Assembly (NCBI GenBank): GCA_001421095.1
Contig: LIIK01000008.1
Location: 2,791-66,790, forward strand
From: Candidatus [Bacteroides] periocalifornicus
GTDB taxonomy: Bacteria; Bacteroidota; Bacteroidia; Bacteroidales; CAJPTX01
Direction of reading: 5' to 3'
Length of the DNA stretch: 64,000 bases
Shown here piece after piece: positions 18,957 through 64,000 of the stretch (position 1 is its first letter; the number at the start of each line of letters is the position of its first letter). Below the pieces are notes generated by a model. That model was not told the DNA's origin and ran no database searches. It was given only the letters and a program-made list of their open reading frames with translations. The position numbers and the translations under genes were made by a program.

Positions 18957-19951
18957 GAATTAATTCTGTAGTATTGCCGCTCATTCTGGGCTGTGTATTC
19001 GTGGGGGCGTGGAGTAGAGTGCAGGCTCAGGATCCGCAGTTTACCCAGTTCTTCGCGAATCCGGTCTACATGTCCCCCTCTTATGCCGGTGCGAGTTCTG
19101 GGCATAGGGCTGTGCTGAGCTACCGTGACCAGTGGTCGATAATGCCCAACATGTATCGCACACTTTCAGCCTCGTATGATGTCAATATCGCCTCCCTTCG
19201 TTCCGGTGTAGGGGTTTTCGTGCTGGGCGATCTGGCTGGAACTGGGAATCTTGGCACAATTCTGGTAGGGGCAGTGTATTCATACTCTGTACCCTTGACC
19301 GATGTGTGGAGCTTTCGGCCTGGTATTGGATTCTACTATCGGCAGAATTCCATTAGCTATTCGAGGCTTACCTGGGGAGACCAGCTCAATACCGATCCGC
19401 CCAGTTCCACGACCATGCAACGTCCAGGGAAGCGGAGGATTTATGATATTGATGCTACGGTGTCCATCCTGTTCCACTCTGAGAATGCCTGGGTGGGGTC
19501 TACCTGGGATCACATGCTTCGCCCAAAGGATTCTTTTTACGGAGAGGGGTCTAGGGTACCATTCCGGTTCTCCCTCTTTGGCGGGTATCGGTTTGTAATT
19601 CAGAGTCTCTACCGTAGAGGAGTCGACCAGAGCCTTTCGGTAGCGGCCAATATACGCTATCAGCAGCGATTTGCGCAGATAGATGTGGGGGGCTATTGGT
19701 TCAAGTATCCATTGCTGCTCGGCATTTGGTACAGAGGAGTACCCATGCTCAAGGGGTATTTTGGGTCTGATGCCCTAGCCTTCATGGTAGGCTTCCGTTA
19801 CAATGGAATACAGGTGGCCTATAGCTACGATCTCACCGTCTCAGGACTTGGGCCTAGCTCGGGTGGTTCGCATGAGATTTCTTTGACCTACGAGGCACCC
19901 ATCACGCCGAAGAAGCGTAAGTACAAAGCCCCCATTTGCCCGCCATACTAG
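18953..19951 (+). CDS. PorP/SprF family type IX secretion system membrane protein
   Basis: N-terminus AQDPQFTQFFANPVYMSPSYAG. The start overlaps the upstream type-B CTD gene by 4 nt (ATGA). Beta-barrel-like composition. Confidence 0.85.
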   Translation: MRINSVVLPLILGCVFVGAWSRVQAQDPQFTQFFANPVYMSPSYAGASSGHRAVLSYRDQWSIMPNMYRTLSASYDVNIASLRSGVGVFVLGDLAGTGNLGTILVGAVYSYSVPLTDVWSFRPGIGFYYRQNSISYSRLTWGDQLNTDPPSSTTMQRPGKRRIYDIDATVSILFHSENAWVGSTWDHMLRPKDSFYGEGSRVPFRFSLFGGYRFVIQSLYRRGVDQSLSVAANIRYQQRFAQIDVGGYWFKYPLLLGIWYRGVPMLKGYFGSDALAFMVGFRYNGIQVAYSYDLTVSGLGPSSGGSHEISLTYEAPITPKKRKYKAPICPPY

Positions 19952-45758: not shown

Positions 45759-47597
45759 ATGTACGATTTCAGCCTCCCAGTATTCGATAAGTGCACGCTA
45801 CGCGCGAGGACGAGGTCGAAGAATCATCAGATGTGGACGGTGACCTTTATGGATGGCGACACGGAGTGGAAGAGCGTGCAGGTGGAGGATGGTGAACTCT
45901 GCGAGAAACCAACGCCAGACCCAGTGAGAGCGGGCTACACCTTTGAGTACTGGTGTAGCGATAGGGGAGATCCAGAGACATCGAAATTCCAGTTCAGAGT
46001 GCCCATACGGAAGAATCTGACACTCTGGGCACAGTGGAGGCGGGATCCCAAGGTAGTACTCCACAAGGTGATATTTGACACGCAGGAGGCTGGCAAGATC
46101 GACACCGTGGAGGTGGAGGACGGCAAGGCAGTGGCAGAGCCTACAGCACCAGTGAGGGCAGGGTACGATTTCAAGGGTTGGTATACCGATGCGGGATGCA
46201 CGATAAAGTACAACTTCAGCTCGGTGGTTACTGGCGATATCCACCTCTACGCCAAATGGGAGAGCAATGGGAAACCGACGTTCAAGGTGACATTCCACAG
46301 CAATGGTGGTAGCGAAGTGCCAGCGCAGCAGGTGGAGGAAAACTGGAAGGTTCAGCGACCTAAGAATCCTGTGTGGGCGAAGCACCAGTTTGCAGACTGG
46401 TATGAGGATGCGGGGCTCACGAAGCTCTACGATTTCGACGCGCAGGTAACAAAACCACTCGACCTCTACGCCAAATGGCTTTCGCTCTGTACGGTAAGCT
46501 ACTCGCAACCCGAGCACGGAAGGATGGATGTGAGAAACGGCAACGACCCCGTAGCGAGCGGCAACGAGGTGCTGGAGGGCACTAAGCTCTCGGTAAGCCT
46601 ACAGGCCGATGATGATTACAAGCCCAAAAGCCTGCTGGTGAACGGAAAGGAGCAGAAAATAGGTGAGGATATAGAGGTAAGGGAGGATGTGACCCTGGTG
46701 GCGGAATTCACCCTCGCGACCTATACGGTGACGTTTATCTACAACGATGGGGTAACGCAGAACTTAGACACTGTGGTGCCTATCTATACGATTCTCCAGC
46801 GGGGCGACGATCCTCAGCGGGAGGGGTATCGATTCAAGGATTGGTACATGGATCAGAATCTAGAAACGCCCTACGATTACAGCCGGCCGGTGAAGAACGA
46901 TCTTAAGCTCTACGCCAAGTGGGCGAAGCTCTGGACAGTAACCTTTGAGAGCAATGGGGGAAGCCCAGTGGATGCCCAGCAGGTGGAGGAAGGGCAAGCG
47001 GCTACCGAACCCCCAGCACCCACCAAGGGCGACGGGAGTGATTTTGGCGGTTGGTTTGAGGATGAAGGGCTGACGAAACCCTTCGTATTCACCACATCGA
47101 TTACTGGCGATAAGAAGCTCTACGCCAAGTGGGATACCAACCGATGCACCATAACCTTCAATAGCAATGGCGGTTCTACGGTGAAGGCTATCCAGGTACA
47201 GAAAGGTAAGCAGGCTAACGAGCCTACAGCACCTGTTCGGAGCGGTTACACTTTCGGGGGATGGTATACCGATGCGGCCTGCACTAAGGCCTACGATTGG
47301 AATAATCCCGTAGTTGCCAACCTAACGCTCTACGCCAAGTGGCAGATGGCAACCCCCGTGGCGCAGCTGCCCGAGGTGGTGGTGGCTAACCCCATAGACG
47401 GAGAGCTACGGCTGCTGAATGCCGAAAGGGTAATACGCTATACGGTGTACACCCAGACTGGCGTAGCTATAGTGCAAGGACGCTCGGCGGGCGCTGGGTC
47501 TATAAGGATAGATGCTACGGATTGGCCCAGTGGGGGCTACCTAGTGCGGGTGGAAGGCGCAATGGGCGGAAGGACTATAAGGGTAGTGAAACAGTAA
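45759..47597 (+). CDS. InlB B-repeat (Listeria-Bacteroides repeat, Flg_new) protein with T9SS type-A C-terminal domain; no recognisable signal peptide
   Basis: Six or more repeats of V.F..NGG........V..G......P..P.R.GY.F.GWY.D......YDF...V...L.LYAKW. C-terminus NPIDGELRLLNAERVIRYTVYTQTG...GGYLVRVEG...IRVVKQ. Confidence 0.75.
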   Translation: MYDFSLPVFDKCTLRARTRSKNHQMWTVTFMDGDTEWKSVQVEDGELCEKPTPDPVRAGYTFEYWCSDRGDPETSKFQFRVPIRKNLTLWAQWRRDPKVVLHKVIFDTQEAGKIDTVEVEDGKAVAEPTAPVRAGYDFKGWYTDAGCTIKYNFSSVVTGDIHLYAKWESNGKPTFKVTFHSNGGSEVPAQQVEENWKVQRPKNPVWAKHQFADWYEDAGLTKLYDFDAQVTKPLDLYAKWLSLCTVSYSQPEHGRMDVRNGNDPVASGNEVLEGTKLSVSLQADDDYKPKSLLVNGKEQKIGEDIEVREDVTLVAEFTLATYTVTFIYNDGVTQNLDTVVPIYTILQRGDDPQREGYRFKDWYMDQNLETPYDYSRPVKNDLKLYAKWAKLWTVTFESNGGSPVDAQQVEEGQAATEPPAPTKGDGSDFGGWFEDEGLTKPFVFTTSITGDKKLYAKWDTNRCTITFNSNGGSTVKAIQVQKGKQANEPTAPVRSGYTFGGWYTDAACTKAYDWNNPVVANLTLYAKWQMATPVAQLPEVVVANPIDGELRLLNAERVIRYTVYTQTGVAIVQGRSAGAGSIRIDATDWPSGGYLVRVEGAMGGRTIRVVKQ

Positions 47598-47838: not shown

Positions 47839-50800
47839 ATGAGATTTATCAAAACGATCTTTAGCCTTCTGCTTCTCGCGGCCTGCTGGGGAGGGGAGAC
47901 CCTTGGGCAGAAGGTGAACTACCTCTACGCTGGGCATGATTCTACCGTGCTAGAGGTGGAATTTCCCTCTGTGCGCCTTGAACCCGTTGAGGTTCAGGGG
48001 CAGCGAAGCCTATTGCCCTATATGCCAGAGGGGATCTATAGGCAGGAGGCGGGTGATCCGGATTTGCCCAACTACGCCCTGCCGATGCTTATGCAGCCTG
48101 GGCAAACGGCTAGCGTTCGCATACTCTCTATGGAGCTGGACACCGTGCCGGGCGTACTGATTGCGCCTTCTAGAGGTATGCTAATACGGACTGTAGACCC
48201 TAGCACGGTGGTTAGAATCTTTGGCCCTAGCTATACGAACGATGGACTGTTCCCTACCCAGAGCGTAGAATTTGCCGCCCCCTATTGGCAGGGTACCAAC
48301 TACGGGCGGAGTTTGCAGCTCTACCCCTTGCAGTACAATCCGGTGAAGCGGTAGCTCTTGGTTGCTAAAAGGATGCGGTTGGCTATTAGGGGTCTGGTAG
48401 ATCCTAGCGAATTGTTCCCAGAGGAAGTACGGGCAGCAGCGAACTATTCGAATATCTATCCAGCACTCTCTAAACTCCCGAAAGTCAGAGGTCAGAAGGT
48501 TGATCCCCAATACGAACTGATGGTGGTAGTGCCTGAGAGATACCGAGCCGCCATACAGCCTTTGGTGCTGTGGAAACGGCAGAGAGGGCTAGCTGTGAGC
48601 ATCTGCAACTACGGCAAGGTGAATGGGGGCAGATAGTAAAGAGCCCCTCTACCCTGAAGCAGTATATCCAGACGAGGTACGAGGCCTCCAGCTCGCGGCT
48701 ACGCTACGTGCTGCTTGTGGGTGGACGGGAGGATATTCCACCGTTTACGAGGACGGGGATCTCAGACCTAAGCTCTGGCGTACCCAATTCCGATAGCGAT
48801 GTGGCCTACGGGCAGCTGCCAGGGCCAGACGGGAGGGAAGACCATGTGAATGAGGTTTACGTGGGGAGATTCTCGGTGCGTGGGATTCCAGAGCTAGAGT
48901 CCATGGTGAAGAAGGTTATAACCTACGAACGCGATCTGGATGCCAGCGATACGTGGCTATCCAATGGCCTTTCGATAGCCAGCAATGAGGGGACGAATGC
49001 GGGCGATAACGACGAAACTGATAGAGAGCACAGCCGGCTTATCCGCCAACATATGCTCTCGGGCGGTTACCAGCAGGTGGATACGCTTTTCGACTTGCCA
49101 CGCCGTTCGGTGAAACCACAGGATGTTTTTGAGACTATCAACAGCGGGGTGGGGGTGATAACCTATATAGGGCATGGCGATGTGCGTTACTGGCAAACCT
49201 CTGGATTCACCGTTGGCCATATAGAGCAACAGCTTAGGAACACTAGGGCTTGGCCTTTTATATTCGATGTAGCCTGCCTAAACGGTAAGATGGCAGAGGG
49301 ACCCTGTTTTGCCGAGGCGTTCGCCAGGGCTAGCCGCGATGGTGAGCCTACGGGCGCATTGGCCATAAACGGAAGTAGCGATAACCAACCGTGAGCACCA
49401 CCCATGGCAGCCCAGGACGCTATGGTTGACTACCTTACAGGGTTTAGCCCTACCGATGGCATGCTAGAGCAGGAGCAACTCTCCTATGGTATGCTGGTAG
49501 CGCGGTCTGTGCAGGTGATGCTGGGCAAATACACGGGGCGGTACGGTGCAGTCACAGCCGATACGTGGAATACGTTTGGCGACCCCTCGGTGTATCTTCG
49601 CACGCAACCGCCTATCCCCATGCGGGCAGAGCTTACTAGAACCGTAAGGATGGGCGATACGCTGCTCAGTGTGCAGTGAGACACGGAGGGGGCACTCGCT
49701 GTGCTTACCTTTGAGCGTACAGGTGAAGATACAGCCTACCTTAGGGCGGTGGTAGACGGAGGACTGGCGCAGTTTCGGGTGAAAGCAATTAAAAAATCAG
49801 ATCGGCTTACACTTACGGTTACAGCGCCCAATAGGCAAACGGTGGTTAGCACGCTCAATGTGGAAGAGGCCAATGCTTTCAGCCTTCGTTCAGTGGTGTG
49901 AAGCTAAAGACTGCTGTAGGGGAAGAGGGAATCTCAATGAAGGGTGGCGATAGTCGAGAGCTTTCGGGCGAGTTGTGCAGCTCGGGATCTGCATTGCCCA
50001 GTGGGTCAGTATCGTTGGAGTGTGTATTGGAACCGAGTACCTTGGGAACGGTAGCTGTGGAGCTGCCCGATGTGAAGGTTGCTGCTTTAGGGCAGTGTAC
50101 GGGTAGGCAAAATCTGGCCAAGGTCACGCTGAAGGCGGAGATACCAGAGGGTACACAGGGTACTCTGCGGCTTAAGGCTAAGGTGGGCGATGTGGTGGTG
50201 GGTGACTATAGCCAGCTCTTCCGAATGGGGACGTGGCGTATGGTAATAGACAGCCTCTCCATTGCAGCGAGTTCAAACGGTGGTAGCGTGCTGGTACCAG
50301 GCGAAAAGCTCACGCTTCAGGTGGCATTGAGGAATGTAGGGGGGCTCGATGTGGAGAATTACCAGCTGATGCTTTCCTACCCAGATTTTCCAGAATTCAC
50401 CCCAAAAGAGTTCAAGCGCACATTGCTCCCTGTTGGAGCAAAGAGCTGATTCCGTCTAGATGTACAGCTGCCAGAGCAAGCCAAGAACAGAAACTTCACG
50501 GTGCTTCGGGCAACGGTCCTGGTGGCGGGCAAAGAGGTGACCGTTACCGAGCTCCCCATCCCGCTTAAAGAGCGTTACATCGCGCAAGCCCTCTTTACGG
50601 GTTACCCACTTGCGAATGGGGATGCTAAGTACCAGAAAACAAGGATTATTATACCCCGTGAAACATTTAAGGCTGGGCAGTATACGGGGATTAGAATCCC
50701 GGTGTACGCTTACGGTTTGCAACAGCAGGGTGCGTGGAACGCCACGGCAACACTAGAACCTACGCTGGCTACCACCATGTCTGATTTGCCCAAAAGCGTA

Positions 50801-51820: not shown

Positions 51821-52576
51821 ATGGTGCGTAATCAGCGGAATGTGTGGATTCTTATGCTAGCTGCGATGTCGCTTCTGACTGTGCCGCTCGGCTGTACGAA
51901 AGAGCCGATTAAGCCCATTGAGAATCCTGACAGAGTCGACACCGTTCCAAATCCCAAGCCAGATACCATTCCAGACCCCAAGCCACAACCCGAACCGTCG
52001 CCAGTGCCAGGCAAATACCCCGCTGTCGATAGTATCATGGTGGATGCCTACCATTTCGATAGTTGGGTCTACATCTCCCTCGAGAAGAGGGGCAATGCTC
52101 GCGTATTGGGGAAGGGGAGCATGACTGTGGATGGCGAACGGCGAGTGGTGGAGGAGCTTTCTTGGAGAGAGCGTGATGATTGGGATGTGGCGCTCCACCT
52201 TACCGACTGGCGCACCAATGGCGGTACATCGGGAAAAGGGCAGTGCGCAGTGGCCAGAACCGAGGAGAAGGACTTTGCTAAAGTTACCGAGGTACCAGCA
52301 CCGTCGGCATTCATAGCCGATGATTCTATACAGGTGCACTATGCGCATAAGCTGGATAAGATTACCACCTTTGGCAATGCGCTACTGTCTGATGTTGTGA
52401 CCATGGTGCACCAAGGGGGCGGTCCTCCAATATTCTCCATTCTCCCGAAAGTTTTAGTGCTTCGCACAGCCAAGGGGCGATACCTCAAGCTGCAGGTAAC
52501 GGGCTACATGGATATGGCAGCGAGTAAATATCTGCAAATCTCATTCAGATACCAAGAGCTAAAGCCGCAGCCATAG
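51821..52576 (+). CDS. HmuY-family (haem-binding) lipoprotein
   Basis: Lipobox LGC. Collinear pattern match to P. gingivalis HmuY from memory: DAYHFDSWVYISL, DDWDVALHLTDWRTNGGTSGKG, VPAPSAFIAD, VLVLRTAKGRYLKLQVTGY, ISFRYQEL. Confidence 0.65.
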   Translation: MVRNQRNVWILMLAAMSLLTVPLGCTKEPIKPIENPDRVDTVPNPKPDTIPDPKPQPEPSPVPGKYPAVDSIMVDAYHFDSWVYISLEKRGNARVLGKGSMTVDGERRVVEELSWRERDDWDVALHLTDWRTNGGTSGKGQCAVARTEEKDFAKVTEVPAPSAFIADDSIQVHYAHKLDKITTFGNALLSDVVTMVHQGGGPPIFSILPKVLVLRTAKGRYLKLQVTGYMDMAASKYLQISFRYQELKPQP

Positions 52577-52634: not shown

Positions 52635-52667
52635 TGCCGTTTTGCCAGTTATTCCCCATCTTCTTGC

Positions 52668-52675
52668 TACCTTTG
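52668..52675 (+). promoter_or_regulatory. -7 promoter box (tacctttg)
   Basis: Lies 45 nt upstream of the ATG at 52720. Confidence 0.5.
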
Positions 52676-52719
52676 CCCCGTTTACCGAGAAATCAATATT
52701 AGAACATCAGGTTTATTCT

Positions 52720-53772
52720 ATGAAAAGATCGCAAGTAGCCCCCTTTTTTCTTGCCATTGCCCTGGTGGCGGCATTCACCTTTGCGGCGTACGGTATAGCT
52801 GGCATTCGTGTGGTCAAGGAGCTTTCGCTCAGCCCTATGGTTATAGGCATTGTGCTGGGGATGCTCTTTGGCAATACTCTGCTGCCCTATGTGCTGGGTT
52901 CGTGGGAGCTTAAAGGGGGATTCAAATTCTGCAGCAAGACCCTCCTGCGCACCGCTATCGTATTCTACGGATTCCGCCTCACGGTGGGCAATGTGATGGA
53001 GATAGGGGTGCCGGGTATCGTTATCGATATCATAGTGGTGACCACGGTGCTGCTGCTGGGTACGTGGCTAGGGCGGCGGTTGGGGCTTGATAGCGATTTG
53101 GCCATACTCACCTCATCGGGCAGCGCGATATGCGGGGCAGCTGCGGTGCTGGGTACAGAGCCCGTGGTGCGCGCCAAACCCTACCAGACGGCAATAGCTG
53201 TGACAACGGTGGTGCTCTTCGGTACCATTGCCATGTTCCTCTACCCTGCGCTCTACAGGGCGGGAGTGTTCGACCTTAACCCTACGCAGATGGCGCTCTA
53301 CACCGGGAGCACCCTCCATGAGGTAGCCCATGTGGTGGGGGCAGGCAACGCAATGAACGATGTGGTAATAGCAAACAATGCGGTGATTACCAAAATGATC
53401 CGTGTTATACTGCTTGCCCCATTCCTCATAATTCTGGGCTTAATACTGCAGCGTACTCGCCGTGGGAAACCCGAATTTGAGGGTAATGCGGGTGGAGCCT
53501 GGTGGCGAAGATTCCCCTGGTTTGCCATTGGTTTCCTGCTGGTTATCTGCTTCAACTCCTTCGACCTCTTGCCGCATTCTGCCGTGGGTATGATCAATAA
53601 GCTCGATAATTTTGCGCTGGCTATGGCCATGACGGCCTTGGGTATCGATGCCGACTTCCGCAAGTTCAAGGAGGCGGGTTTTCGGCCATTCCTGCTGGCG
53701 CTTATCCTTTTCGGCTGGCTCATCGGTGTCGGCTACCTGTTGGCCAAGTATTTAGCGCCCGCATTGGCCTAG
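52720..53772 (+). CDS. YeiH/UPF0324 family membrane protein (putative sulfate exporter family)
   Basis: About 10 TM helices. Motifs GSAICGAAAV and TLHEVAHVVGAG. The ATG at 52720 is preferred because the track start overlaps the promoter. Confidence 0.75.
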   Translation: MKRSQVAPFFLAIALVAAFTFAAYGIAGIRVVKELSLSPMVIGIVLGMLFGNTLLPYVLGSWELKGGFKFCSKTLLRTAIVFYGFRLTVGNVMEIGVPGIVIDIIVVTTVLLLGTWLGRRLGLDSDLAILTSSGSAICGAAAVLGTEPVVRAKPYQTAIAVTTVVLFGTIAMFLYPALYRAGVFDLNPTQMALYTGSTLHEVAHVVGAGNAMNDVVIANNAVITKMIRVILLAPFLIILGLILQRTRRGKPEFEGNAGGAWWRRFPWFAIGFLLVICFNSFDLLPHSAVGMINKLDNFALAMAMTALGIDADFRKFKEAGFRPFLLALILFGWLIGVGYLLAKYLAPALA

Positions 53773-53796: not shown

Positions 53797-54675
53797 ATGC
53801 ACAAGTCAGGTTTTGTCAGCATTCTCGGGAATCCCAACGTTGGGAAATCCACACTTATGAATCGTCTGGTAGGCGAGCGGCTGTCCATAGTCACCAGCAA
53901 GGCGCAGACTACCCGCCATCGAATTTTTGGCATTGTCGATACCCCAGACTACCAGATTGTTTACTCCGACACCCCAGGTATATTGGCGCCAGCCTACGAG
54001 CTACAGCGCACCATGCTGAAGGCGGTGGAGCAGACCCTGGAGGATTCCGATTTCCTGCTCTACATAACCGACGTGGTGGAGAATCCGGCCAAGCACGCCG
54101 AGTTTTTCGCCACCATAGCCAAGAGTCCCATCCCAAAGCTGGTGCTTATCAATAAGATCGATCTTACCGATCAGCATACGCTAGAGGGACTCGTTGCCCA
54201 GTGGGCAGAGAGGTTGCCCGGGGCTGAGGTGCTCCCCATATCGGCCCTGCATAGCTTTGGCGTGGAGCTTATCCAGCCGAAGATCATTTCGCTCCTACCC
54301 GAGGGTGAAAAGTACTTCCCCCCCGATACGCTGACCGACAGACCAGTGCGTTTCTTCGTTACGGAGATCATCCGAGAGAAGATCCTGCTCTACACCCATC
54401 AGGAGGTGCCCTACTCGGTAGAGATCTCGGTGAGCGACTACCGCGAAGAGCGTGGTATCGACCGTATAGAGGCGGTGATATACGTTGCCCGCGATTCACA
54501 GCGGGGCATCCTCATCGGGCACGGGGGGCGCATGCTCAAGCGCATTGGCATAGAGGCCCGCAAGGATCTGGAGCGATTCCTCCAGAAGCACGTCTACCTT
54601 GGCCTCACGGTTCAGGTGGCCGATAACTGGCGCGACGACCCAGACCAGCTCAAGCGATTCGGGTATACGGAGTAG
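53797..54675 (+). CDS. era: GTPase Era
   Basis: G1 GNPNVGKST, G3 DTPG, G4 NKID, and a C-terminal KH domain (IYVARDSQRGILIGHGGRMLKRIG). Confidence 0.9.
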   Translation: MHKSGFVSILGNPNVGKSTLMNRLVGERLSIVTSKAQTTRHRIFGIVDTPDYQIVYSDTPGILAPAYELQRTMLKAVEQTLEDSDFLLYITDVVENPAKHAEFFATIAKSPIPKLVLINKIDLTDQHTLEGLVAQWAERLPGAEVLPISALHSFGVELIQPKIISLLPEGEKYFPPDTLTDRPVRFFVTEIIREKILLYTHQEVPYSVEISVSDYREERGIDRIEAVIYVARDSQRGILIGHGGRMLKRIGIEARKDLERFLQKHVYLGLTVQVADNWRDDPDQLKRFGYTE

Positions 54676-54701
54676 GGCGGAATACCGCAAAATCTGATTC
54701 A

Positions 54702-54738
54702 ACGGGCGATGCGAAGAGCATCGTCCGTTTTTTTTTTT
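54702..54738 (+). terminator. Rho-independent terminator
   Basis: 11-bp stem acgggcgatgc/gcatcgtccgt, then T11. Confidence 0.8.
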
Positions 54739-54756
54739 GCAATTTATTGATGTCTG

Positions 54757-54832
54757 GTAAAACTTAATGGGGGTTACGAAATCTCCTAAGAATATAGTCA
54801 AAATCTTCAAAAATAGGCTTATAAAGGCCTAA
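54757..54832 (+). repeat. Left arm of ~76-81-bp imperfect inverted repeat bounding the 5.7-kb cassette
   Basis: gtaaaactta..ggggttacgaaatctcctaagaatatagtcaaaatcttcaaaaataggcttataaaggcctaa is the reverse complement (with a few mismatches and indels) of 60421-60501. Confidence 0.8.
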
Positions 54833-55233
54833 CAAGCAAGAAATACCCAGATAATAGCAATTTGTATAATCTGTCTAAAAGATTGCCTCTGTATTAAAAT
54901 TGGCTATAACTATAAGATTTTTATCTATTTGCAGTAATCGTATGTATTTTTAGCGGACAGCAATAAAAAAAGATTGAACCCATTACGAAACTTTTGCAGG
55001 GGGGCATCGTGCCAAATTTCGCTCTGGTATAGACTGGGAGGTGTTGATGGTATGTTATTTCACGGCTCGTTGCCCTCCTTAGTAAGGACGCGGTGTAACC
55101 CAACCCCAAGGGAGGCCCCAAACCGAACAAAGAAAGCAAAAGATATCAACGCCAATTGACTCTGAAATCTTGCACGCCGGGATTTGAATCACTACCTAGT
55201 TGTGGCGTGCCTGTAGAACGGTTATGATCCACT

Positions 55234-56256
55234 TCACATTTCTTCGCTCCACTGCATACATTCCGGGTTATAATGGCATTTATAGGGTTTATCTGTAAGG
55301 TTTTCCAGAAAGGCTCTACAGTCATTGCAAAGATATCTGAACTCGCACAATTTACATACTGAAACACGATCTGTGTTGATCATTCCTAAGGATTGGAATT
55401 TTTCATTACTCACAATATCTACTAACTGAACGTCATTCTGATCTATATTACCGTAGTAGCGAGGAATACAGGGACAATTCATTACATCCCCTTCTGATGA
55501 TATGAAGAGTTTCTTGTACAAGCAGCTGTTATATAACTTATTGAACATATAGGAGTGTACAGTCTTCAATCTGTAAAGAGTTCTCCTATTTATCACTCCA
55601 CAGTCTCTGGGAGATGAAAAACATTGCTCTGAATAAAGTATGAATCCTATCGATTGGGATGTGAATTCTGTTTTGATCTTCTTATAATAATTCTTTTCTT
55701 GGTTAAATACTATCATCGATAGCATCGGATATTTTTCTAGGAAAGAAATTGCTTCGTCTACATGATTCCAATTCGGCTGGCAGATTATTAGTTCGATTGA
55801 TAGCCATTCATGCTGTAAAAATGGCTGTAGCGTCTTGTCGACTTCTGCAAGCGATACAGGAAGGAAATATCGAAACTGAAGATGCTGGCAATTCAACTTT
55901 GCGAGTTGTGCCGCAATATAATCATATCTATGCGCATGCTTCTCAATATCTATACATGCGATTTCTATTAGGCACGGAGAGCAGTATATCTCCTCGATTT
56001 TTCTAAATCCAGTAATATCCTCCACTAGAACTCCAAGCCGGTAACGTAAGATAAAGTCGATAAATTGCTGTATGAATTCATGCCATTCCTCTCCCCATTT
56101 GGAAAAAATACACTCAATAGTTTCGGTAGAGAATTGCTCCTGCAAACCACACGGCAAATTTGGGATATAGAGGAGTTCTTCCCTTTTGAAATCAAGCACG
56201 AGCGTTCTTTTCGCTCCCTTGGTGAAAAAAACGTCTGGGAAAATAAGTAGATACAT
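55234..56256 (-). CDS. SPASM-domain peptide maturase ('grasp-with-spasm' type), no canonical radical-SAM CX3CX2C motif
   Basis: The C-terminal Cys pattern fits SPASM: C-x10-G-x4-C (CLYKKLFISSEGDVMNC), then CKLCEFRYLCNDC, then YKCHYNPEC. The N-terminal half has only CSPCLIEIAC (C-x2-C-x5-C). AT-rich codon usage. Confidence 0.75.
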   Translation of the reverse strand: MYLLIFPDVFFTKGAKRTLVLDFKREELLYIPNLPCGLQEQFSTETIECIFSKWGEEWHEFIQQFIDFILRYRLGVLVEDITGFRKIEEIYCSPCLIEIACIDIEKHAHRYDYIAAQLAKLNCQHLQFRYFLPVSLAEVDKTLQPFLQHEWLSIELIICQPNWNHVDEAISFLEKYPMLSMIVFNQEKNYYKKIKTEFTSQSIGFILYSEQCFSSPRDCGVINRRTLYRLKTVHSYMFNKLYNSCLYKKLFISSEGDVMNCPCIPRYYGNIDQNDVQLVDIVSNEKFQSLGMINTDRVSVCKLCEFRYLCNDCRAFLENLTDKPYKCHYNPECMQWSEEM

Positions 56257-56459
56257 TATCCGTCATCTTCATTTTTTGTAGTAAATCCATATATTGTAAC
56301 GGATTTCCAACGATCACATAGGCTGTATTGACTATAGCCATGATATTTCTGGGAAAACGAGAAATTCTTTTTCTCAGAAATTAAATGCTCAGAATCAGCC
56401 TCCCATTCTTTTAGCTCTAAGCTTCGGAAAAAGAGCGGAAATGTTTCTTCTTGTGCCAT
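56256..56459 (-). CDS. 67-aa ORF translationally coupled between the ATP-grasp and SPASM genes (function unknown)
   Basis: Its ATG lies 4 nt after the ATP-grasp stop, and its TAA overlaps the SPASM ATG by 1 nt (TAATG). Acidic C-terminus (KNEDDG). Confidence 0.5.
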   Translation of the reverse strand: MAQEETFPLFFRSLELKEWEADSEHLISEKKNFSFSQKYHGYSQYSLCDRWKSVTIYGFTTKNEDDG

Positions 56460-56463
56460 AGTC

Positions 56464-57444
56464 TTACAGTAAGGACGCTAATTCTTTCTCTAGGTAGTAG
56501 TTGCAGGCTGTACCATAGGCCGTAAATTGCCCCACTGGGTTCACTTCGAGAAATACGTAAGCACCGTTCGAATCTACTACCAAATCAATAGCCCCGAATT
56601 GCAAATCCAAGAGTCGCATCAAATGGGAAAGCTTCTGAGCGATTGAATCGGGAAGTCTATAAGGAACAATGCGAAGATCCTTTGGCTGGCAACGTCTTCC
56701 ATCAATGGTTGCCCCTTCAAGTTCCTGCGTGAATAGGGCCACCGCATAGCAACGTCCAGCTATATAGATTACGCGAAGCTCAAATCGCTTTTCAATTTTT
56801 TCTTGAAAAAGCGCATGGGGAAAAGTATCTGGTATTGAGGACAGATCTTCCTCCGTCACCAGTGAAGTGTATGATATATAAGCGCTAGATTTTTGAACAT
56901 CGTAAACCCCTTCATACATTGGCTTTACGATCATATCCCCTTTCTGCTTAATCAAATCTTTCAACTCGCTTTTCTTGTTTATGATATAAGTCGCTGGCGT
57001 TTTAAGCCCAATGTTTCTAGCTATTACAAGTACACTTAGCTTATTCAGCTCGCGTTTTTCGTATTCGCAGAGTTTAAAGCTTGCCTGCTTTTGAATCTGC
57101 TCAAAAATAAAAGCCCGATAAACGAGAAACTCGGTTTTTAGGAATTCCTTATAATGATCGATTTTGTAGGCTTCACATTTGTCATGCGGAAGATCTGCAT
57201 GTGCCGTGGCTGGAGGTAGTGCTAGGTTGATTCCACATTTTCGATACCAAAAGCTCGTGATTTCTGAGATGTCAATATCCCTCGCACAGTAGATAGATCG
57301 GGCGCTCAGCTTCCCATTTGAGTATTTGAAATGAATATCATGACAATCCCCATTGAACCGGAAATAGTTTTTTCCCCAGAAGTAAAGCCAATCAATCACC
57401 CTAGAGGTGGCGAAATCATCTAATCGCGAGGATATAGCTATCAT
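56464..57444 (-). CDS. ATP-grasp peptide maturase (graspetide/'grasp-with-spasm' type)
   Basis: MIAISSRLDDFATSRVIDWL N-terminal pre-ATP-grasp region. Later VKPMYEG, FELRVIYIAGRCYAVA and YVFLEVNPVGQF. The track start at 57573 adds 43 codons and is less likely. Confidence 0.8.
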   Translation of the reverse strand: MIAISSRLDDFATSRVIDWLYFWGKNYFRFNGDCHDIHFKYSNGKLSARSIYCARDIDISEITSFWYRKCGINLALPPATAHADLPHDKCEAYKIDHYKEFLKTEFLVYRAFIFEQIQKQASFKLCEYEKRELNKLSVLVIARNIGLKTPATYIINKKSELKDLIKQKGDMIVKPMYEGVYDVQKSSAYISYTSLVTEEDLSSIPDTFPHALFQEKIEKRFELRVIYIAGRCYAVALFTQELEGATIDGRRCQPKDLRIVPYRLPDSIAQKLSHLMRLLDLQFGAIDLVVDSNGAYVFLEVNPVGQFTAYGTACNYYLEKELASLL

Positions 57445-57602
57445 AAGTACAAAAAAAATTAAAATAGAGAGTTCCACCCGTGAGTAAGTAGAACCCTCTA
57501 TCAAACTAAACCGCTTCTTGTAGCTATCGTATGGGATAAACGACGAGTTACAGCCTCTAACAAATACATACAAAACCTACAGAAGTGCGTACCAAACTGA
57601 TC

Positions 57603-57788
57603 TTACTTCAAGTCAGTCAGTTTTTCTGTATCAGCATCGCTATCTACATCCTTACCGCTGGCCTCGCTGCACTGCATCCCTGAAGACAACGTAAAGGAAA
57701 GATGCCAATCCCATTCCTTACCACCAAGAAGTTCTTCTTGCATGCTCTGTGGAATTTCAAAATCCACATTGAAATTCTTAACATCCAT
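57603..57788 (-). CDS. Candidate RiPP precursor peptide (61 aa) with double-glycine leader
   Basis: MDVKNFNVDFEIPQSMQEELLGG | KEWDWHLSFTLSSGMQCSEASGKDVDSDADTEKLTDLK. Verified ATG at 57788-57786 and TAA at 57605-57603. It is the only AT-rich part of the 181-aa track ORF and lies 158 nt upstream of the ATP-grasp gene. Confidence 0.65.
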   Translation of the reverse strand: MDVKNFNVDFEIPQSMQEELLGGKEWDWHLSFTLSSGMQCSEASGKDVDSDADTEKLTDLK

Positions 57789-57829: not shown

Positions 57830-60133
57830 CTACAATCGCTGTACCTCGTCGGATACCTCGTTTGGTTTCTTCGTAGTTTTCATACCCCATCGGTACTGCA
57901 CTGAGAGGAAGACGCCGCGAATCCCACCCCGCGAAAAGCTGTCCCGCTGGATTCCGTTGGTCTCCAGGAGGATGTTCTCGTAGGCCGTATTGAACATATC
58001 GTCGGCTATTAGCTGAGTTACGAGCTGCCCCCCGAGCCAGCTCTTCGATATGCGCCCATCTGCATTGATGTAGCCCTTCGTCACCCCGGTGGCATAGCTC
58101 CCACCGTGCACGTGGGAGCGTACCCCAAGAGTTAGGTTCCATCCCCACCCTACTGCGTACCGTACTCGCAGCGAGTAGGCCACGAAGGGGTGGGTGTAGC
58201 GTTGGCCATTGTAGCGCAGATCCTGGAGCTGCACGCCAACCTGCCCGTTTATGGAGAGATGCCAGATCTTCGGGCTGAAGGCGAGCGCGGTGAAGTACTG
58301 GTTGTGGTCTGGCAGATTCATGGGGGCGACCAGCACTATGGCCTGGGCATCGTCATGCAGCCGCGCCACCTCAAAGACACGTGCGTAGACCCTGCTGTAG
58401 GAGACCTCCCACGATAGCCACCCGTAGGAGAGGTTGCATGCGACCTCGCGCAGCCGGCTGGTGCGCAGATTGGGGTTGCCATCCCAGCGGAGATACCGAT
58501 TGTTCATGAAGTGGTTCGAGGAGAGCTGTTCGTAGGAGGGTCTATCCACCATCTCCCTGTACGCCAGCTCGAGAGCCAGATTATCAGACTCGTAGCCCAG
58601 GGTGACCACAGGGAGAAGATCGAGCGACCTGCGGCTCTGCCCGGGCTGTAGCACCCTGTCTGCGTAGTACCGATAATCCACGTACTCCGCCCCGAGCTGC
58701 CCTTGGAGCCTCCACTGCTCGCCCAGCGTGTAGGTGCAGCCCACGTAGCCCCCTAGGCGATCTTGCCGGAACTGATCGGAGGCGAGCTGCGCGCGGCTAT
58801 ACTCCCCTTCACGAGCTGTGCGTGCGTAGTCTGCCCCTAGGGAAAGTTCAAAATCGCCTAGTTTGTGGGAGAAATCCCCCTTGGCAAAGAGAAGGCGGGC
58901 GCGCGATACGGTACGGTAGGCATCTGGCACCCCGCCTGTCCCGTAGAGGATCGCCCGCTCCGATTCAGCTCCCGTCCAGTAGTAGCTGCCCGTGATAGCT
59001 GCGGTTGTCCGCTCAGTCTGGAAATCGTAACCGCCCCCCACGGTGTAGCCCTGATTTTTATCTAGGGTTTCGCTCCGGAAGGGCTGCTCTTCCCTTGTGG
59101 TTGAACCAGAGCGCGGGCGTAACTGGTGCGAGAAATCACCCGCTATCACAGTTCGTTTCCTACGGCTCGGCTGGGCATCTACATACAGGTTGAGCGTATG
59201 GCTACTGCTCAGATGGTAGAACAGCTTGGCGCCACCCGATAGCTCACGATTTTGTCGACGGCGATTCGCAAGCAGACGATTATCCACCGTACCCCGCGAG
59301 GTGCCGTAGTGGAACACCTCCTCATCGTGCAGGCGGTTGGTATTCTCAAATTCGTGAATCCCGAGAAGGATATCGAGCCGGGACAGGCTAAGGAAACCGC
59401 TTGCATCCGCAGTATTCGTCCAACCGTTACGCAGTCCGAATTTGTCGTAGAGGTCGAACCCGATATATTCGCTCCGCTTACGGTAGGTGTTGATGATGAT
59501 GGCCGAGCCTACATTTACCCCGTACCGACCTGAGGGGTTCGTGGTGATCTCCACATTGCGAATCTGTGACGATTTCACGCGCGCAAGTTCGTTGGCATCC
59601 TGCACTTCCCGACCGTCTATGAATATGGCTGGCGTGCCATGCCCGAAGATGGACACCGCACCGTCTGTAACCTCCACCCGGGGCATTTCACGTAGCACAT
59701 CGAGCAGCGTGCCGACTGCCTCCAGCTGAGTCCCCTGGATCTTCACCGTGGTGAGGTTGGCCTTCCGCTCGATGCGTTCCGCATCGCCCCGGACTACCAC
59801 CCGCTCGATCTCCTGCACTGGAGAGTCGGCCACTACGATGCCAAGGTCAGTATCGCCTATCACGTTCACTGATATCTCTTGCAGATTCTGCCCGAGGTAG
59901 GTGAACCGTAGCCCGTAGTGACCCACGGAAACCGTGCCCGCCATGTGGCCTTGCGCATCGGTCCAGTACACTGCAGCGTGCCTCTGCTCCCCCTCGGGGG
60001 TGAATATGCAGGTAACATCGGGCAGCGGCCTACCTGTGCTATCCTGCAGCGTGAGGCTTACTCTAGCCACTTGGGCAACAGCCGGGGACACGGCAAGCAG
60101 TGACGCAACAAATACGGCTATCAATCTTTTCAT
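57830..60133 (-). CDS. Outer-membrane beta-barrel protein (CarboxypepD_reg-like + plug-like + OMP_b-brl_3/TonB-dependent-receptor-like barrel)
   Basis: Signal peptide MKRLIAVFVASLLAVSPAVAQ. N-terminal VSLTLQDSTGRPLPDV. Plug-like FGHGTPAIFIDGREV. Alternating beta-strand pattern ending in LSVQYRWG. Confidence 0.75.
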   Translation of the reverse strand: MKRLIAVFVASLLAVSPAVAQVARVSLTLQDSTGRPLPDVTCIFTPEGEQRHAAVYWTDAQGHMAGTVSVGHYGLRFTYLGQNLQEISVNVIGDTDLGIVVADSPVQEIERVVVRGDAERIERKANLTTVKIQGTQLEAVGTLLDVLREMPRVEVTDGAVSIFGHGTPAIFIDGREVQDANELARVKSSQIRNVEITTNPSGRYGVNVGSAIIINTYRKRSEYIGFDLYDKFGLRNGWTNTADASGFLSLSRLDILLGIHEFENTNRLHDEEVFHYGTSRGTVDNRLLANRRRQNRELSGGAKLFYHLSSSHTLNLYVDAQPSRRKRTVIAGDFSHQLRPRSGSTTREEQPFRSETLDKNQGYTVGGGYDFQTERTTAAITGSYYWTGAESERAILYGTGGVPDAYRTVSRARLLFAKGDFSHKLGDFELSLGADYARTAREGEYSRAQLASDQFRQDRLGGYVGCTYTLGEQWRLQGQLGAEYVDYRYYADRVLQPGQSRRSLDLLPVVTLGYESDNLALELAYREMVDRPSYEQLSSNHFMNNRYLRWDGNPNLRTSRLREVACNLSYGWLSWEVSYSRVYARVFEVARLHDDAQAIVLVAPMNLPDHNQYFTALAFSPKIWHLSINGQVGVQLQDLRYNGQRYTHPFVAYSLRVRYAVGWGWNLTLGVRSHVHGGSYATGVTKGYINADGRISKSWLGGQLVTQLIADDMFNTAYENILLETNGIQRDSFSRGGIRGVFLSVQYRWGMKTTKKPNEVSDEVQRL

Positions 60134-60420
60134 ACCACCAAGTTATAAACTATTTTTGGTTCAATAGCAAGCGTAGAGTCCAAAAAATATTTATTATACT
60201 ATACTGTGCTAATCATCAACCGTTTAGCGATGAAAAAAAGAGAATAACCCATGCGACCCGGCTCGAAGATCGCCCAGAAAATTATTATTGCTGACCAGTA
60301 AAAATACATTACAATTACTACAAATGACTGATAATCTTATAGTTATAGTCAAATTTAATGCAGGAGTTTACCTTTTAGACGGGTTATGCCAACTGCTATT
60401 ATCAGGGTGTTTTTCGCCTG

Positions 60421-60501
60421 TTAGACCTTATATAAGCCTATATTTTGAAGTTATTGACTATATTCCTAGGAGATTTCGTAACCCCATCAAGTAAGTTTTA
60501 C
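60421..60501 (-). repeat. Right arm of the inverted repeat bounding the cassette
   Basis: ttagaccttatataagcctatattttgaagttattgactatattcctaggagatttcgtaaccccatcaagtaagttttac. Confidence 0.8.
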
Positions 60502-60517
60502 TGGATAGCAATAATAG

Positions 60518-61546
60518 GCAATAGATTACGAGACGGGTGAACGGAGTTTCGGCTCAGTGGCAGTGGGCAATAATCTGGAGTATACTGACGATGGGATTAA
60601 GAACATAGCGGCCTCCCCCGCCTTATTTGCCAGCGTGGGGCTTTGGAGCAACTACACCCATGCCACCTACACGCACAGCTGGCGGCAGCTCTACTACATG
60701 GGTTCTGTGGGGCTACAGGGCCTAGCGGTCAATGCTACGAGTAAGCGGCATGACTACTGGCGGCCACGGGTAGCCGTGAGCCTTACATGGCGGTTGCCCC
60801 ACAGGCAGTCGGTACGCGGGAGCTACTACCTCACCAATCAGCTCCCGGAGAGCCGGAATCTGGTGACCTTCAACCAGTCGACCAACCCGTGGTTTCGCGA
60901 AGAGGGCAATCCCTACCTCGTCCCCATCCAGAGCCATCGTTTCAGCCTGAACTATGAGTGCGGGTTGGGCGATTTTCAGCTTCGCCTGCAGGTACGCCAT
61001 AACCGCAACAGCCAGATGATAGAGCCCTACCTGAGGCAAGAGGGAGCGGTGCAGGTCCAGTCGTACCGAAACAATGGCACTACGCTAGGCACCCATGCGG
61101 GGCTTGGGCTGAACTACCGAGGCGAGAGCATAATGGTATCGCTTACCTCTGAGTACTCGTGGGTGGCCTACAATGGGCAGCGGCCCAAGGGCTATGTGGG
61201 GGTAAGGGGCTTCCTCCGTTGGGATTTTGGCGACTTTTTCATGTACACCACCCTTGCCTGGCAGAACCAGAGCTACACGGCCATAGGCAGTACCGAATAC
61301 CCAGCCCCCCTAGAAGCCCACGTACAGATAGCTTGGCAGGCCACCAAGCGGCTCTACCTGGCACTGGCGCTGCCCTACTACTGGGGGGTGCGGAGCGAGA
61401 TAACGCGGATCGGGCAGGCAGACTACACGAGCTACCAGCGCACCTACTACCAGGGGGCCAGCTTTCGCCCTTGGGTGCTGGTGGCCTGGACGCTGCGTAG
61501 GAACGCCGAGCAGGCCATAGAGAACCGGATGCCCGAGCCGCTGTAG
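60518..61546 (+). pseudogene. 5'-truncated outer-membrane beta-barrel (OMP_b-brl_3-like) gene remnant
   Basis: The open frame starts right after a TAG at 60515, about 17 nt from the inverted-repeat arm, where GC content jumps. It encodes only the C-terminal ~340 aa of a barrel (NPWFREEGNPYLVP..., ends ...RPWVLVAWTL) with no signal, plug or N-terminal domain. Confidence 0.6.
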
Positions 61547-62867: not shown

Positions 62868-64000
62868 CTAGGCCAGCCCGTAGATGAAGATGGCGATGAT
62901 GGCTATAGGGGCTATGAAGCGCACGAGGAAGGTGTAGGTCTTCAGCATCCCTATGCTCCAGTGCTGCCGCCCCTCGCTGGTGAGCTCGGCCTCCACCAGC
63001 TTGCGCTGCATGAACCAGCCCACGAAGATAGAGACCAGCAGCCCGCCGAGCGGGAGCATGATCTTCGCGGTGAGGAAGTCGAGCCGGTCGAAGAAGTTCA
63101 TGGAGTAGGAGCAGAACACGCCGAGGATGATGACCCCAGCCGTAACGATGATAGTACCCACCGAGCGGCTGAGTTTGAACCGCTCGTGCACAAACACCAC
63201 GCAGGTCTCGGTGAGCGAGATGGTGGAGGTGATGGCGGCAATCATGATGAGGAAGAAGAAGATGGACGACCATAGGCTCGAGAGCGGCAGGCTCTTGAAC
63301 AGGCCCGGCACGGTGATGAAGAGCAGCCCGGGGCCTCCCTTCACCAGCTCCTGGGTTACAGCAGCTTTATCTGGCGCGAGCGCAAAGGCCGCAGGGAATA
63401 TCACCAGGCCGGCGAGGATGGCCACCAGCGTATCGAGTAGGGAGACCTGGGCGGCGGTTTTGAACAGGTGCGCATCCTGCTTGAAGTAGGAGCCGTAGGT
63501 AATCATGATCCCCATGCCCAGCGAGAGCGAGAAGAATGACTGCCCTAAGGCCGAGAGGAATGTGGAGCCATTGAGCTTGCTGAAATCGGGGTGGAAGAGG
63601 AATGAGAGCCCCTCGCCAGCCCCCTCTAGCGTTATGGAGCGTATGGCCAAGACGATGAGCAGGAGGAAGAGCACGGGCATGAGTAGCTTGGCCGATTTCT
63701 CAATGCCCTTCTTAACGCCAGAATTGACAAACACTCCCGTGAGTATGGCAAAGGTGGCCATTAGCGCCACCTGTATTGGGAATCTTGCGGCCAGGTTGCT
63801 GAAGTCGCCTGCGTAGTCTGTCACGCTGGCCAGCTGCCCAGAGACCGATTGGATGAAGTACCAGAGCGTCCAACCGCACACCACCTGGTAGAAACCCAGA
63901 ATGAGGAAGGCGGTGAGTATGCCGAGCCGGCCTACCCATTTCCATTGCGTACCCGGGGCCAGTACTCTGAACGACATCGAGGCGTTAGCCTTCCCAGCGC
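62868..64000 (-). CDS. Sodium-dependent transporter, NSS/SNF family (5' end beyond the window)
   Basis: Multi-TM protein. The frame stays open upstream of the track's Met to the window end (…AGKANASMSFRVL…). GPGLLFITVPGLF-type motifs. Confidence 0.7.
   Translation of the reverse strand, partial: AGKANASMSFRVLAPGTQWKWVGRLGILTAFLILGFYQVVCGWTLWYFIQSVSGQLASVTDYAGDFSNLAARFPIQVALMATFAILTGVFVNSGVKKGIEKSAKLLMPVLFLLLIVLAIRSITLEGAGEGLSFLFHPDFSKLNGSTFLSALGQSFFSLSLGMGIMITYGSYFKQDAHLFKTAAQVSLLDTLVAILAGLVIFPAAFALAPDKAAVTQELVKGGPGLLFITVPGLFKSLPLSSLWSSIFFFLIMIAAITSTISLTETCVVFVHERFKLSRSVGTIIVTAGVIILGVFCSYSMNFFDRLDFLTAKIMLPLGGLLVSIFVGWFMQRKLVEAELTSEGRQHWSIGMLKTYTFLVRFIAPIAIIAIFIYGLA

Follow-up and report, generated by a model that had tools for sequence, protein, structure and literature searches.

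A chromosomal grasp-with-spasm graspetide locus in Candidatus [Bacteroides] periocalifornicus and its SPASM protein without a radical-SAM motif

A 64,000-nt stretch of contig LIIK01000008.1 (hereafter the window, to which all coordinates refer) from Candidatus [Bacteroides] periocalifornicus, an uncultivated, periodontitis-associated oral bacterium, carries a gene cluster for a peptide made on ribosomes and altered after translation (a RiPP). The cluster is a grasp-with-spasm system, a kind already catalogued, and contains genes for a precursor peptide, an ATP-grasp peptide ligase (GwsG), a 67-aa protein and a SPASM-domain protein (GwsS). We consider the locus likely to be a chromosomal, shortened copy of the gwsG/gwsS graspetide operon of Bacteroidota, with the mechanism and history proposed below. 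GwsS is best described as a pseudo-radical-SAM (S-adenosylmethionine) protein, which keeps the RiPP recognition element (RRE) and SPASM ends of a peptide maturase around a middle domain unable to bind the SAM cluster.

The locus is a member of the grasp-with-spasm family

Membership in the grasp-with-spasm family follows from the fact that both enzymes exceed the NCBI curated (NCBIfam) cut-offs of TIGR04192 and TIGR04193. GwsG scores 255.1 bits against TIGR04192 (cut-off 230) in a full-length match (2–318 of 318), and GwsS scores 211.9 bits against TIGR04193 (cut-off 175). These searches, proposed by the initial annotation of the window, bear out its recognition of the ATP-grasp and SPASM genes as a grasp-with-spasm pair. 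The same annotation held that the family was catalogued only computationally, which is too narrow: one paper describes it and a second probably does, and NCBI already names strain homologues of GwsG in newer metagenome-assembled genomes “grasp-with-spasm system ATP-grasp peptide maturase”.

In the first of these papers the grasp-with-spasm group forms graspetide “Branch 5”, for which 190 loci in Bacteroidetes are counted (Makarova et al., 2022; PMC8939145). Its features are highly diverse precursors with a double-glycine (GG) leader, a SPASM protein of TIGR04193, a cluster-23 lipoprotein and a small protein between both enzymes; PF14905/TonB-like outer-membrane proteins are among the associated families, and an LPL motif was suggested as a possible ligase-engaging element (PMC8939145). 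The second paper reports a SPASM-domain protein alongside each graspetide of “Group 14”, and gives no chemistry (Carter et al., 2026; PMC13097080). Group 14 is probably the same family as grasp-with-spasm. In a 2026 preprint the genes are called gwsG and gwsS and, in P. gingivalis, are located on conjugative elements that also carry a type I secretion set. We found no product or product chemistry for grasp-with-spasm in the searchable literature, in line with the initial annotation.

The ligase is homologous to graspetide ligases of solved structure in the PDB (AMdnB, E = 1.5e-27; MdnC, 4.6e-27; MdnB, 2.8e-23; CdnC, 5.3e-21). A longer form of its open reading frame (ORF) would begin with a TTG at 57573; its homologues begin at the Met at 57444. 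With the microviridin, plesiocin and chryseoviridin pathways (MdnC/MdnB, AMdnB, CdnC) the locus shares a homologous ligase and a ribosomal precursor with a double glycine after the leader and Ser/Thr/Lys and Asp/Glu in the core. It differs in the SPASM-domain neighbour, which is obligatory in the grasp-with-spasm family, and in the scores of GwsG, which lie below the cut-offs for both MvdC (148 bits, cut-off 425) and MvdD (131 bits, cut-off 475). It differs also in the leader, where neither the precursor of the window nor those of its three closest relatives contain a motif of the PFFARFL type; a PLFFRSL motif stands instead on the separate 67-aa protein. This motif resembles the microviridin leader motif PFFARFL.

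Relatives carry a seven-gene operon on conjugative elements

GwsS has only a few near relatives, which comprise one 96% cluster from the same species and then proteins at 43–51% identity; the subfamily of the window is divergent from other grasp-with-spasm systems, with at most 51% identity to anything outside the species. The contigs of these relatives (L033–L037, L055 and L056) carry a conserved seven-gene operon. It encodes, in order, an outer-membrane protein (OMP) of the OMP_b-brl_3 family (818 aa), a 68-aa peptide, an ATP-grasp protein (330 aa), a 63/64-aa ORF, a SPASM protein (340 aa), a C39-peptidase ABC transporter (PCAT; 743 aa) and a membrane protein of ~165 aa (164–168 aa). The PCAT gene overlaps the SPASM stop in L033–L036 and L055. 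Genes for a relaxase, a type IV coupling protein (T4CP), MobC, RteC and DUF3408 adjoin the operons of L033–L036, which therefore lie on Bacteroidales conjugative elements. Between the window and L033, amino acid identities are 36% for the OMP, 47% for the peptide, 48% for the ligase, 39% for the small ORF (tblastn) and 49% for the SPASM protein.

This complete seven-gene operon is the reference that shows the window copy to be truncated. In tblastn searches with the L033 PCAT and ~165-aa protein there was no match anywhere in the window, and Pfam scans of 22 of its 24 other large ORFs (≥220 aa) contained no ABC or C39 domain. Gene calls on the contig, which cover the remaining ORFs, include Flg_new (45759–47597), HmuY (51821–52576), Cons_hypoth698 (52642–53772) and SNF (62868–63977). 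Neither the Pfam scans nor the contig calls contained relaxase, coupling, transfer or integrase genes in the window, where only housekeeping and type IX secretion cargo genes were seen.

A scan of GTDB representative genomes provided 32 distant loci. In 30 of them the SPASM gene follows the ATP-grasp gene by ~190–315 nt; a PCAT gene lies directly downstream in nine and elsewhere within 8 kb in two more. Since most distant loci (about two thirds) have no PCAT within 8 kb, a cluster without its own PCAT is common in the family. A PCAT or its start is nevertheless present in five of the six closest relative loci, because of which the missing transporter may reflect a deletion from a longer ancestral operon.

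Hallella multisaccharivorax also has a chromosomal copy of the operon, which is decayed, with the ATP-grasp gene truncated or missing. In this species and a related contig (L038/L039) the decayed operon adjoins a type III-B CRISPR (Cmr) locus; the ATP-grasp protein is absent from the gene calls of one contig and 277 aa long in the other. Neither has an intact PCAT, and in L039 an 82-aa ORF follows the SPASM gene at the expected PCAT start.

The modelled fold of GwsS resembles radical-SAM maturases, without their cluster motif

GwsS is composed of an RRE-like N-terminus (residues ~1–78), a shortened β/α domain (~99–208) and a C-terminal SPASM domain, the last scoring 24.4 bits against PF13186 (gathering score 21.5). 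Eight SPASM cysteines (219, 245, 261, 301, 304, 310, 313 and 327) are arranged as CX10GX4C ... CX2CX5CX2C ... C and are invariant in 148 sequences, where no other cysteine is invariant. The canonical SPASM motif is spaced CX2CX5CX3C. Alignments of 148, 81 and 42 members revealed no CxxxCxxC or other three-Cys site in residues 1–218, where C123 is the only cysteine conserved within the GwsS subfamily. The Radical_SAM family (PF04055) was matched by none of 81 family members at E ≤ 1, against 43 of 81 for SPASM, and is absent from the precomputed domains of 41 family proteins.

An AlphaFold2 model calculated from a 42-sequence alignment reached a predicted local distance difference test score (pLDDT) of 89 and a predicted template modelling score (pTM) of 0.85; an earlier run with seven sequences (pLDDT 61) was unusable. 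The model consists of four short strands followed by three helices (~1–78), several β/α units (~99–208) and the SPASM region. When compared with known structures by Foldseek, only CteB and SuiB, which combine RRE, radical-SAM and SPASM domains, fell below E 1e-3 (probability 0.99–1.00), and the RRE proteins PaaA and TbiB1 were weaker matches to the N-terminus. A PDB sequence search with a profile of the SPASM family gave no meaningful match. GwsS thus resembles CteB and SuiB in the order of its RRE, β/α and SPASM domains and in having all cysteines of the auxiliary clusters. It differs from them in the absence of CxxxCxxC and of a Radical_SAM Pfam signal, in a barrel ~100 residues shorter than in their chains of roughly 420–440 residues, in the spacing of its SPASM cysteines and in a substrate without conserved Cys.

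Because GwsS has no radical-SAM motif and the core has no conserved Cys, radical thioether chemistry by GwsS appears unlikely. This runs counter to the graspetide literature, where the reading is “radical SAM, thioether”, and makes doubtful the doubly modified product, formed through the SPASM enzyme, that the initial annotation had proposed. The concept of a pseudo-radical-SAM protein is not new, and NCBIfam already holds analogous pseudo-radical-SAM and SPASM-only families. TIGR04150 (pseudo_rSAM_GG) and TIGR04304 (GeoRSP SPASM) keep the SPASM domain and are linked to peptide systems by their names, that of TIGR04150 indicating a protein without a working radical-SAM site. Their similarity, measured on the L033 homologue, is weak and limited to the SPASM region (E 3e-4 and 1e-3), and they belong to systems other than grasp-with-spasm, TIGR04150 to a Bacteroidales GG-peptide system.

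The precursor peptide has a conserved leader and core

The leader of the precursor (residues 1–23, EIPQSMQEELLGG) ends in ELLGG (residues 19–23), as expected for the GG-leader peptide of the initial annotation, and the core spans residues 24–61 (KEWDWHLSFTLSSGMQCSEASGKDVDSDADTEKLTDLK). Its identity to the equivalently placed 68–69-aa peptides of L033, L036 and L039 is 47–50%. Across these four distinct precursors of the subfamily the leader block EIPQSMQE.LLGG is invariant, as are S31, T33 and S35 of the core, followed by S44-G-K-D-x-D-S-D51. The alignment thus conserves a donor and acceptor pattern of S31, T33, S35, K46, D47, D49 and D51. The one cysteine of the window core (C40) is not conserved, and the other three precursors have no Cys. 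Such an alternation of hydroxyl and carboxylate residues suggests up to three cross-strand ω-ester rings and possibly a Lys46 lactam.

Among the distant loci, a regular expression flagged upstream ORFs of GG type in 24 of 28; about 20 are clear and some of the flagged ORFs are unconvincing. These precursors have an MKK... GG leader and a core with a Ser/Thr-rich and then an Asp/Glu-rich segment, and many have no Cys. A conserved GG-leader precursor does accompany homologous gene pairs, which settles a check laid out in the initial annotation. In positions 2600–3700 of L004 a shared core reads roughly K/T-S/T-T-T-P/T ... E ... ND-x-D.

The gap behind the precursor gene contains a hairpin followed by a U-run, detected by terminator scan and folding. 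It has a 17-bp stem with a folding energy of −22.2 kcal/mol (z-score −6.7). Relatives have strong hairpins of unrelated sequence in the same gap, with 16 bp in L033 and L036 and, in L039, a 6-bp stem in the fold that extends further by eye. The hairpin looks like a partial terminator or attenuator. Partial terminators after the precursor gene are common in RiPP operons.

A small protein is encoded between the two enzymes

The 67-aa ORF contains the motifs FPLFFRSLE, SQKYHGY and RWKSV. By alignment it is 33–37% identical to 62–64-aa ORFs in the same overlapping position in L033, L036, L039, L055 and L056, and the close loci share the motifs PLF[LF]RS[IL]E, S-x-KY-x-GY and RWKS. PL is invariant in an alignment of nine small ORFs, with FPLFF of the window in place of LPL. 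An ORF of 51–79 aa occupies the gap between the ATP-grasp and SPASM genes in 29 of 30 distant loci examined; most of these ORFs have LP[LIV] and mostly also a C-terminal-proximal motif around YKPISK. A profile built from the 29 distant ORFs ranked the 67-aa ORF first of 1242 window ORFs, in a weak match (E 0.079). With homology unproven, we treat the 67-aa ORF as a putative LPL-type accessory protein by its position, overlapping the SPASM start, and its motif.

Layout and composition of the operon

The four RiPP genes were confirmed exactly as initially annotated: they are encoded on the same strand, separated by 158 nt between precursor and ATP-grasp, by 4 nt between ATP-grasp and the 67-aa ORF (TAA-gact-ATG) and by a 1-base TAATG overlap between the 67-aa ORF and SPASM. 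One small ORF thus lies in the 208 nt that separate the ATP-grasp and SPASM genes. A fifth gene had been overlooked. An OMP gene in the same orientation ends 41 nt before the precursor start, and we count it as a member because the conserved operon of the relatives contains it. The minus-strand transcription unit is therefore OMP, precursor, hairpin, ATP-grasp, putative LPL-type small protein and SPASM, with five genes in all (Table 1). The proteins of the locus are deposited as KQM09290–KQM09293, the 61-aa form of the precursor being KQM09293.1.

Table 1. Features of the grasp-with-spasm locus and its flanks in window coordinates.
Feature	Position	Strand	Description
OMP gene	57830..60133	−	Outer-membrane β-barrel, 767 aa, signal peptide, CarboxypepD_reg + OMP_b-brl_3; operon gene 1
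Precursor peptide gene	57603..57788	−	61 aa
Hairpin + U-run	57463..57502	−	Inside the 158-nt gap between precursor and ATP-grasp genes; terminator scan and folding
ATP-grasp peptide ligase (GwsG) gene	56464..57444	−	326 aa, TIGR04192
67-aa accessory protein gene, “LPL” type by position and motif	56256..56459	−	
SPASM-domain protein (GwsS) gene	55234..56256	−	340 aa, TIGR04193
Non-coding spacer	54970..55233	no strand	Site where the PCAT gene of the relatives begins
Inverted repeat, left arm	54737..54969		Directly after the era terminator
Inverted repeat, right arm	60282..60521		AT-rich region upstream of the OMP gene
Truncated OMP_b-brl_3 fragment	60557..61546	+	329 aa, GC-rich, Pfam profile positions 157–280 of 408 only

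The AT-rich character of the four genes was likewise confirmed. Their G+C content is 0.425 (precursor), 0.422 (ATP-grasp), 0.358 (67-aa ORF) and 0.378 (SPASM), compared with 0.541 for the whole window, 0.586 for the upstream OMP gene, a value like that of the host, and 0.564 for era. The AT-rich block runs beyond the SPASM stop as far as 54676.

Compared with other grasp-with-spasm systems, the locus shares the order of GG-leader precursor, ATP-grasp, small ORF (putatively LPL-type) and SPASM genes, a Bacteroidota host, the associated OMP_b-brl_3 family and nearest relatives that are cargo of conjugative elements. It differs in having no PCAT, HlyD or cluster-23 lipoprotein and in being chromosomal, located between era and a truncated OMP gene with the 235-bp inverted repeat around it. 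A GC-rich OMP gene beside AT-rich other genes is a further difference.

Traces of the history of the locus

The OMP matches PF14905 (E 1.4e-32) and, over 769 aa, shares 36% identity with its counterpart at the start of the conjugative-element operons. The locus is a mosaic, in which the OMP has 0.586 G+C and 36% identity to relatives, against 0.36–0.42 and 39–49% for the four downstream genes, and the OMPs of the relatives are AT-rich (G+C 0.35–0.36). A homologue search for the origin of the OMP returned only its own 90% cluster.

An inverted repeat of ~235 bp brackets exactly the five genes, with arms 80.7% identical over 233 nt by blastn. The left arm abuts the terminator of era (54701–54729, terminator scan) and the right arm ends 36 nt before the truncated OMP_b-brl_3 fragment, which showed no significant similarity to the OMP of the operon. 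A dispersed or mobile repeat was considered and rejected: there is no other copy in the window or in 39 loci compared, and in JGI metagenome contigs the repeat core matched only the same locus. Among the strain contigs no variant had the bracketed segment in inverted orientation. The GC mosaic and the inverted repeat resemble traces left by an insertion or by the replacement of a cassette. A foreign origin of the AT-rich genes, as the horizontal acquisition of the initial annotation supposed, is plausible because their nearest relatives are AT-rich cargo of conjugative elements. A separate repeat of ~35 nt, probably a common intergenic or terminator element, occurs at 54968–55002, ~20162, ~24055 and ~31238.

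The locus is maintained in the strain population

The locus was found at the same site, with 97.6–100% nucleotide identity, in 11 of 11 contigs identified through identical Era or OMP proteins, and also in every further strain contig recovered. In most strain comparisons the ratio of nonsynonymous to synonymous polymorphism (pN/pS) was ~0.1–0.2 for precursor, ligase and SPASM, based on small counts; for the precursor it was ~0.11–0.13 across strains, with an almost invariant core. By this measure the locus appears to be under purifying selection. No covering strain contig has a disrupted precursor, ligase or small ORF, one allele having an in-frame 3-nt deletion. SPASM “fragments” of 82–86 aa, initially considered as a possible sign of widespread decay, are mostly artefacts of contig ends, and real stops occur only in L049 and L057.

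Proposed mechanism

We propose that the AT-rich genes came from the gene pool of Bacteroidales conjugative elements and have since become fixed in the chromosome at a single site. Transcripts of the precursor are probably more abundant than those of the enzymes because of the hairpin that follows the precursor gene. GwsG would phosphorylate Asp side chains of the core and close ω-ester rings to Ser/Thr, and possibly an ω-amide to K46; the alternation of SxTxS and DxDxD would fit a cross-strand hairpin holding as many as three rings. GwsS, as a pseudo-radical-SAM protein, would act without 5′-deoxyadenosyl radical chemistry. The leader is probably bound by its RRE-like domain; its two Cys-ligated Fe–S sites may support the ligase, structurally or as a partner, or serve a SAM-independent redox step. 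The 67-aa protein with its PLFFRSL motif may have an accessory function in engaging either the ligase or the SPASM protein. For removal of the leader and export across the inner membrane the system would depend on a C39 transporter encoded elsewhere, or these steps may have been lost, and the OMP may handle passage across the outer membrane.

A more specific form of this proposal is that GwsS is a true pseudo-radical-SAM protein, an RRE and SPASM Fe–S protein that no longer carries out SAM chemistry and works with the PLFF mini-protein. It would then either be indispensable to the ligase as a non-radical partner, handing over the peptide bound by its leader, or catalyse a redox step independent of SAM. 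We offer this version tentatively and consider it less likely than not.

Alternative explanations

The identity of the two enzymes could be read differently. If the ATP-grasp protein were a housekeeping ligase of the RimK/GshB type and the small ORFs were due to chance, the weak secondary matches of GwsG to the RimK, LysX and MptN models (E 5e-8 to 1.5e-3) would be accounted for. The RimK family model, however, gives only ~32 bits against 255 bits for TIGR04192, the best PDB relatives are all graspetide ligases and the relatives have conserved the sequence of both small ORFs as well as their position. Model scores, PDB relatives and the precursor alignment together refute a RimK/GshB identity, to which we assign practically no chance; the clustering with such ligases that, by the initial annotation, would have refuted its reading is not seen. 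For GwsS, the initial annotation and the wording of Makarova et al., 2022 imply a working radical-SAM/SPASM maturase, which would add a second cross-link, a thioether or C–C bond, on top of the lactones. A complete set of eight SPASM cysteines, a whole-chain fold like that of the radical-SAM maturases CteB and SuiB, C40 in the window core and the retention of the SPASM gene beside the ATP-grasp gene in 30 of 32 distant loci are all consistent with such an enzyme. Yet a three-Cys site is missing from residues 1–218, with C123 alone conserved in the subfamily, PF04055 is matched by 0 of 81 members and the barrel is shortened. C40 is itself not conserved, being absent from the L033, L036 and L039 precursors and many distant ones, and NCBI deliberately named its model “SPASM domain peptide maturase” and holds the related “pseudo-rSAM” TIGR04150 in NCBIfam. 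We regard a working radical-SAM enzyme as improbable.

A second question is whether the locus still makes a peptide. It could be a decaying, non-productive remnant of a conjugative-element operon, which lost the PCAT and the ~165-aa gene and yields no mature secreted peptide. The loss of two genes, one of which (the PCAT) is present in whole or by its start in five of the six closest loci, the clear decay of the chromosomal copy in H. multisaccharivorax and the rearrangement scars in the flanks (the inverted repeat and the truncated neighbouring OMP gene) fit this account, as do premature SPASM stops in two alleles and OMP frameshifts in two. It is opposed by the intact precursor, ATP-grasp and small ORF in every covering strain contig, by the low pN/pS in most comparisons (small counts) with an almost invariant core, and by the presence of the locus in all contigs recovered. 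About two thirds of the distant loci also have no PCAT within 8 kb, and an exporter encoded in trans is usual for the family. A remnant is thus unlikely, if somewhat less so than a radical-SAM role for GwsS.

Our preferred explanation, a shortened but maintained chromosomal operon, has several observations to contend with. The independent SPASM stops Q186* (L049) and S253* (L057) and the OMP frameshifts in L044 and L053 mean that SPASM and OMP may be dispensable or decaying. The OMP, with its different composition and lower identity, may not share the history of the four downstream genes. No PCAT, HlyD or other leader peptidase is present within the 64-kb window, the initial annotation having already seen neither a leader protease nor a PCAT exporter. 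The similarity of the 67-aa ORF to the distant LPL-type ORFs is weak, and the partner role proposed for GwsS is drawn only from its modelled fold and its missing motifs. Since no chemistry has been observed for any family member, the residue patterns allow only a guess at the number of rings and their topology.

Other features of the window

An Rfam scan, covering the whole window at gathering scores and positions 54600–55300 at E ≤ 1, returned two tRNAs and one chance-level match only; the spacer after the SPASM gene is therefore not a known RNA. A sigma-70 promoter scan gave no signal above shuffled expectation, the sigma-70 consensus not being appropriate for Bacteroidota, and a search for TTTG...TAnnTTTG found no site near the locus. 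Elsewhere, a 2419-aa ORF (11697–19951, plus strand) with a PorP/SprF gene directly after it is a typical pairing of type IX secretion cargo and partner. A gingipain-like C25 peptidase gene (48570–49394 and neighbouring ORFs) is split into several ORFs here and in identical contigs, and is single and intact (605 aa) in strains L044, L048 and L049. The split gene is either a strain-specific pseudogene or an assembly error.

Significance

The analysis revises the view of the locus in several respects: it has five genes, lacks the PCAT and ~165-aa protein of its relatives, includes a 67-aa ORF that is LPL-type by position and motif, and encodes a SPASM protein that is best not regarded as a radical-SAM enzyme. 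Grasp-with-spasm loci number in the hundreds across Bacteroidota, and some lie on conjugative elements in species of the mouth and gut. For the family we would expect a conserved SxTxS...DxDxD core that bears lactone or lactam rings made by the ATP-grasp ligase, and an Fe–S partner that is not a radical-SAM enzyme. Better laboratory material than the window locus would be the complete conjugative-element operons, or those of cultivable Chryseobacterium, Pedobacter or Chitinophaga. If GwsS is indeed a true pseudo-radical-SAM protein that acts as a non-radical partner or in a SAM-independent redox step, this would represent a new role for the SPASM twin-cluster domain and a third kind of partner-dependent graspetide synthesis. 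To our knowledge, all characterised graspetides are protease inhibitors, and one may speculate that a conserved graspetide could matter in the protease-dominated periodontal niche.

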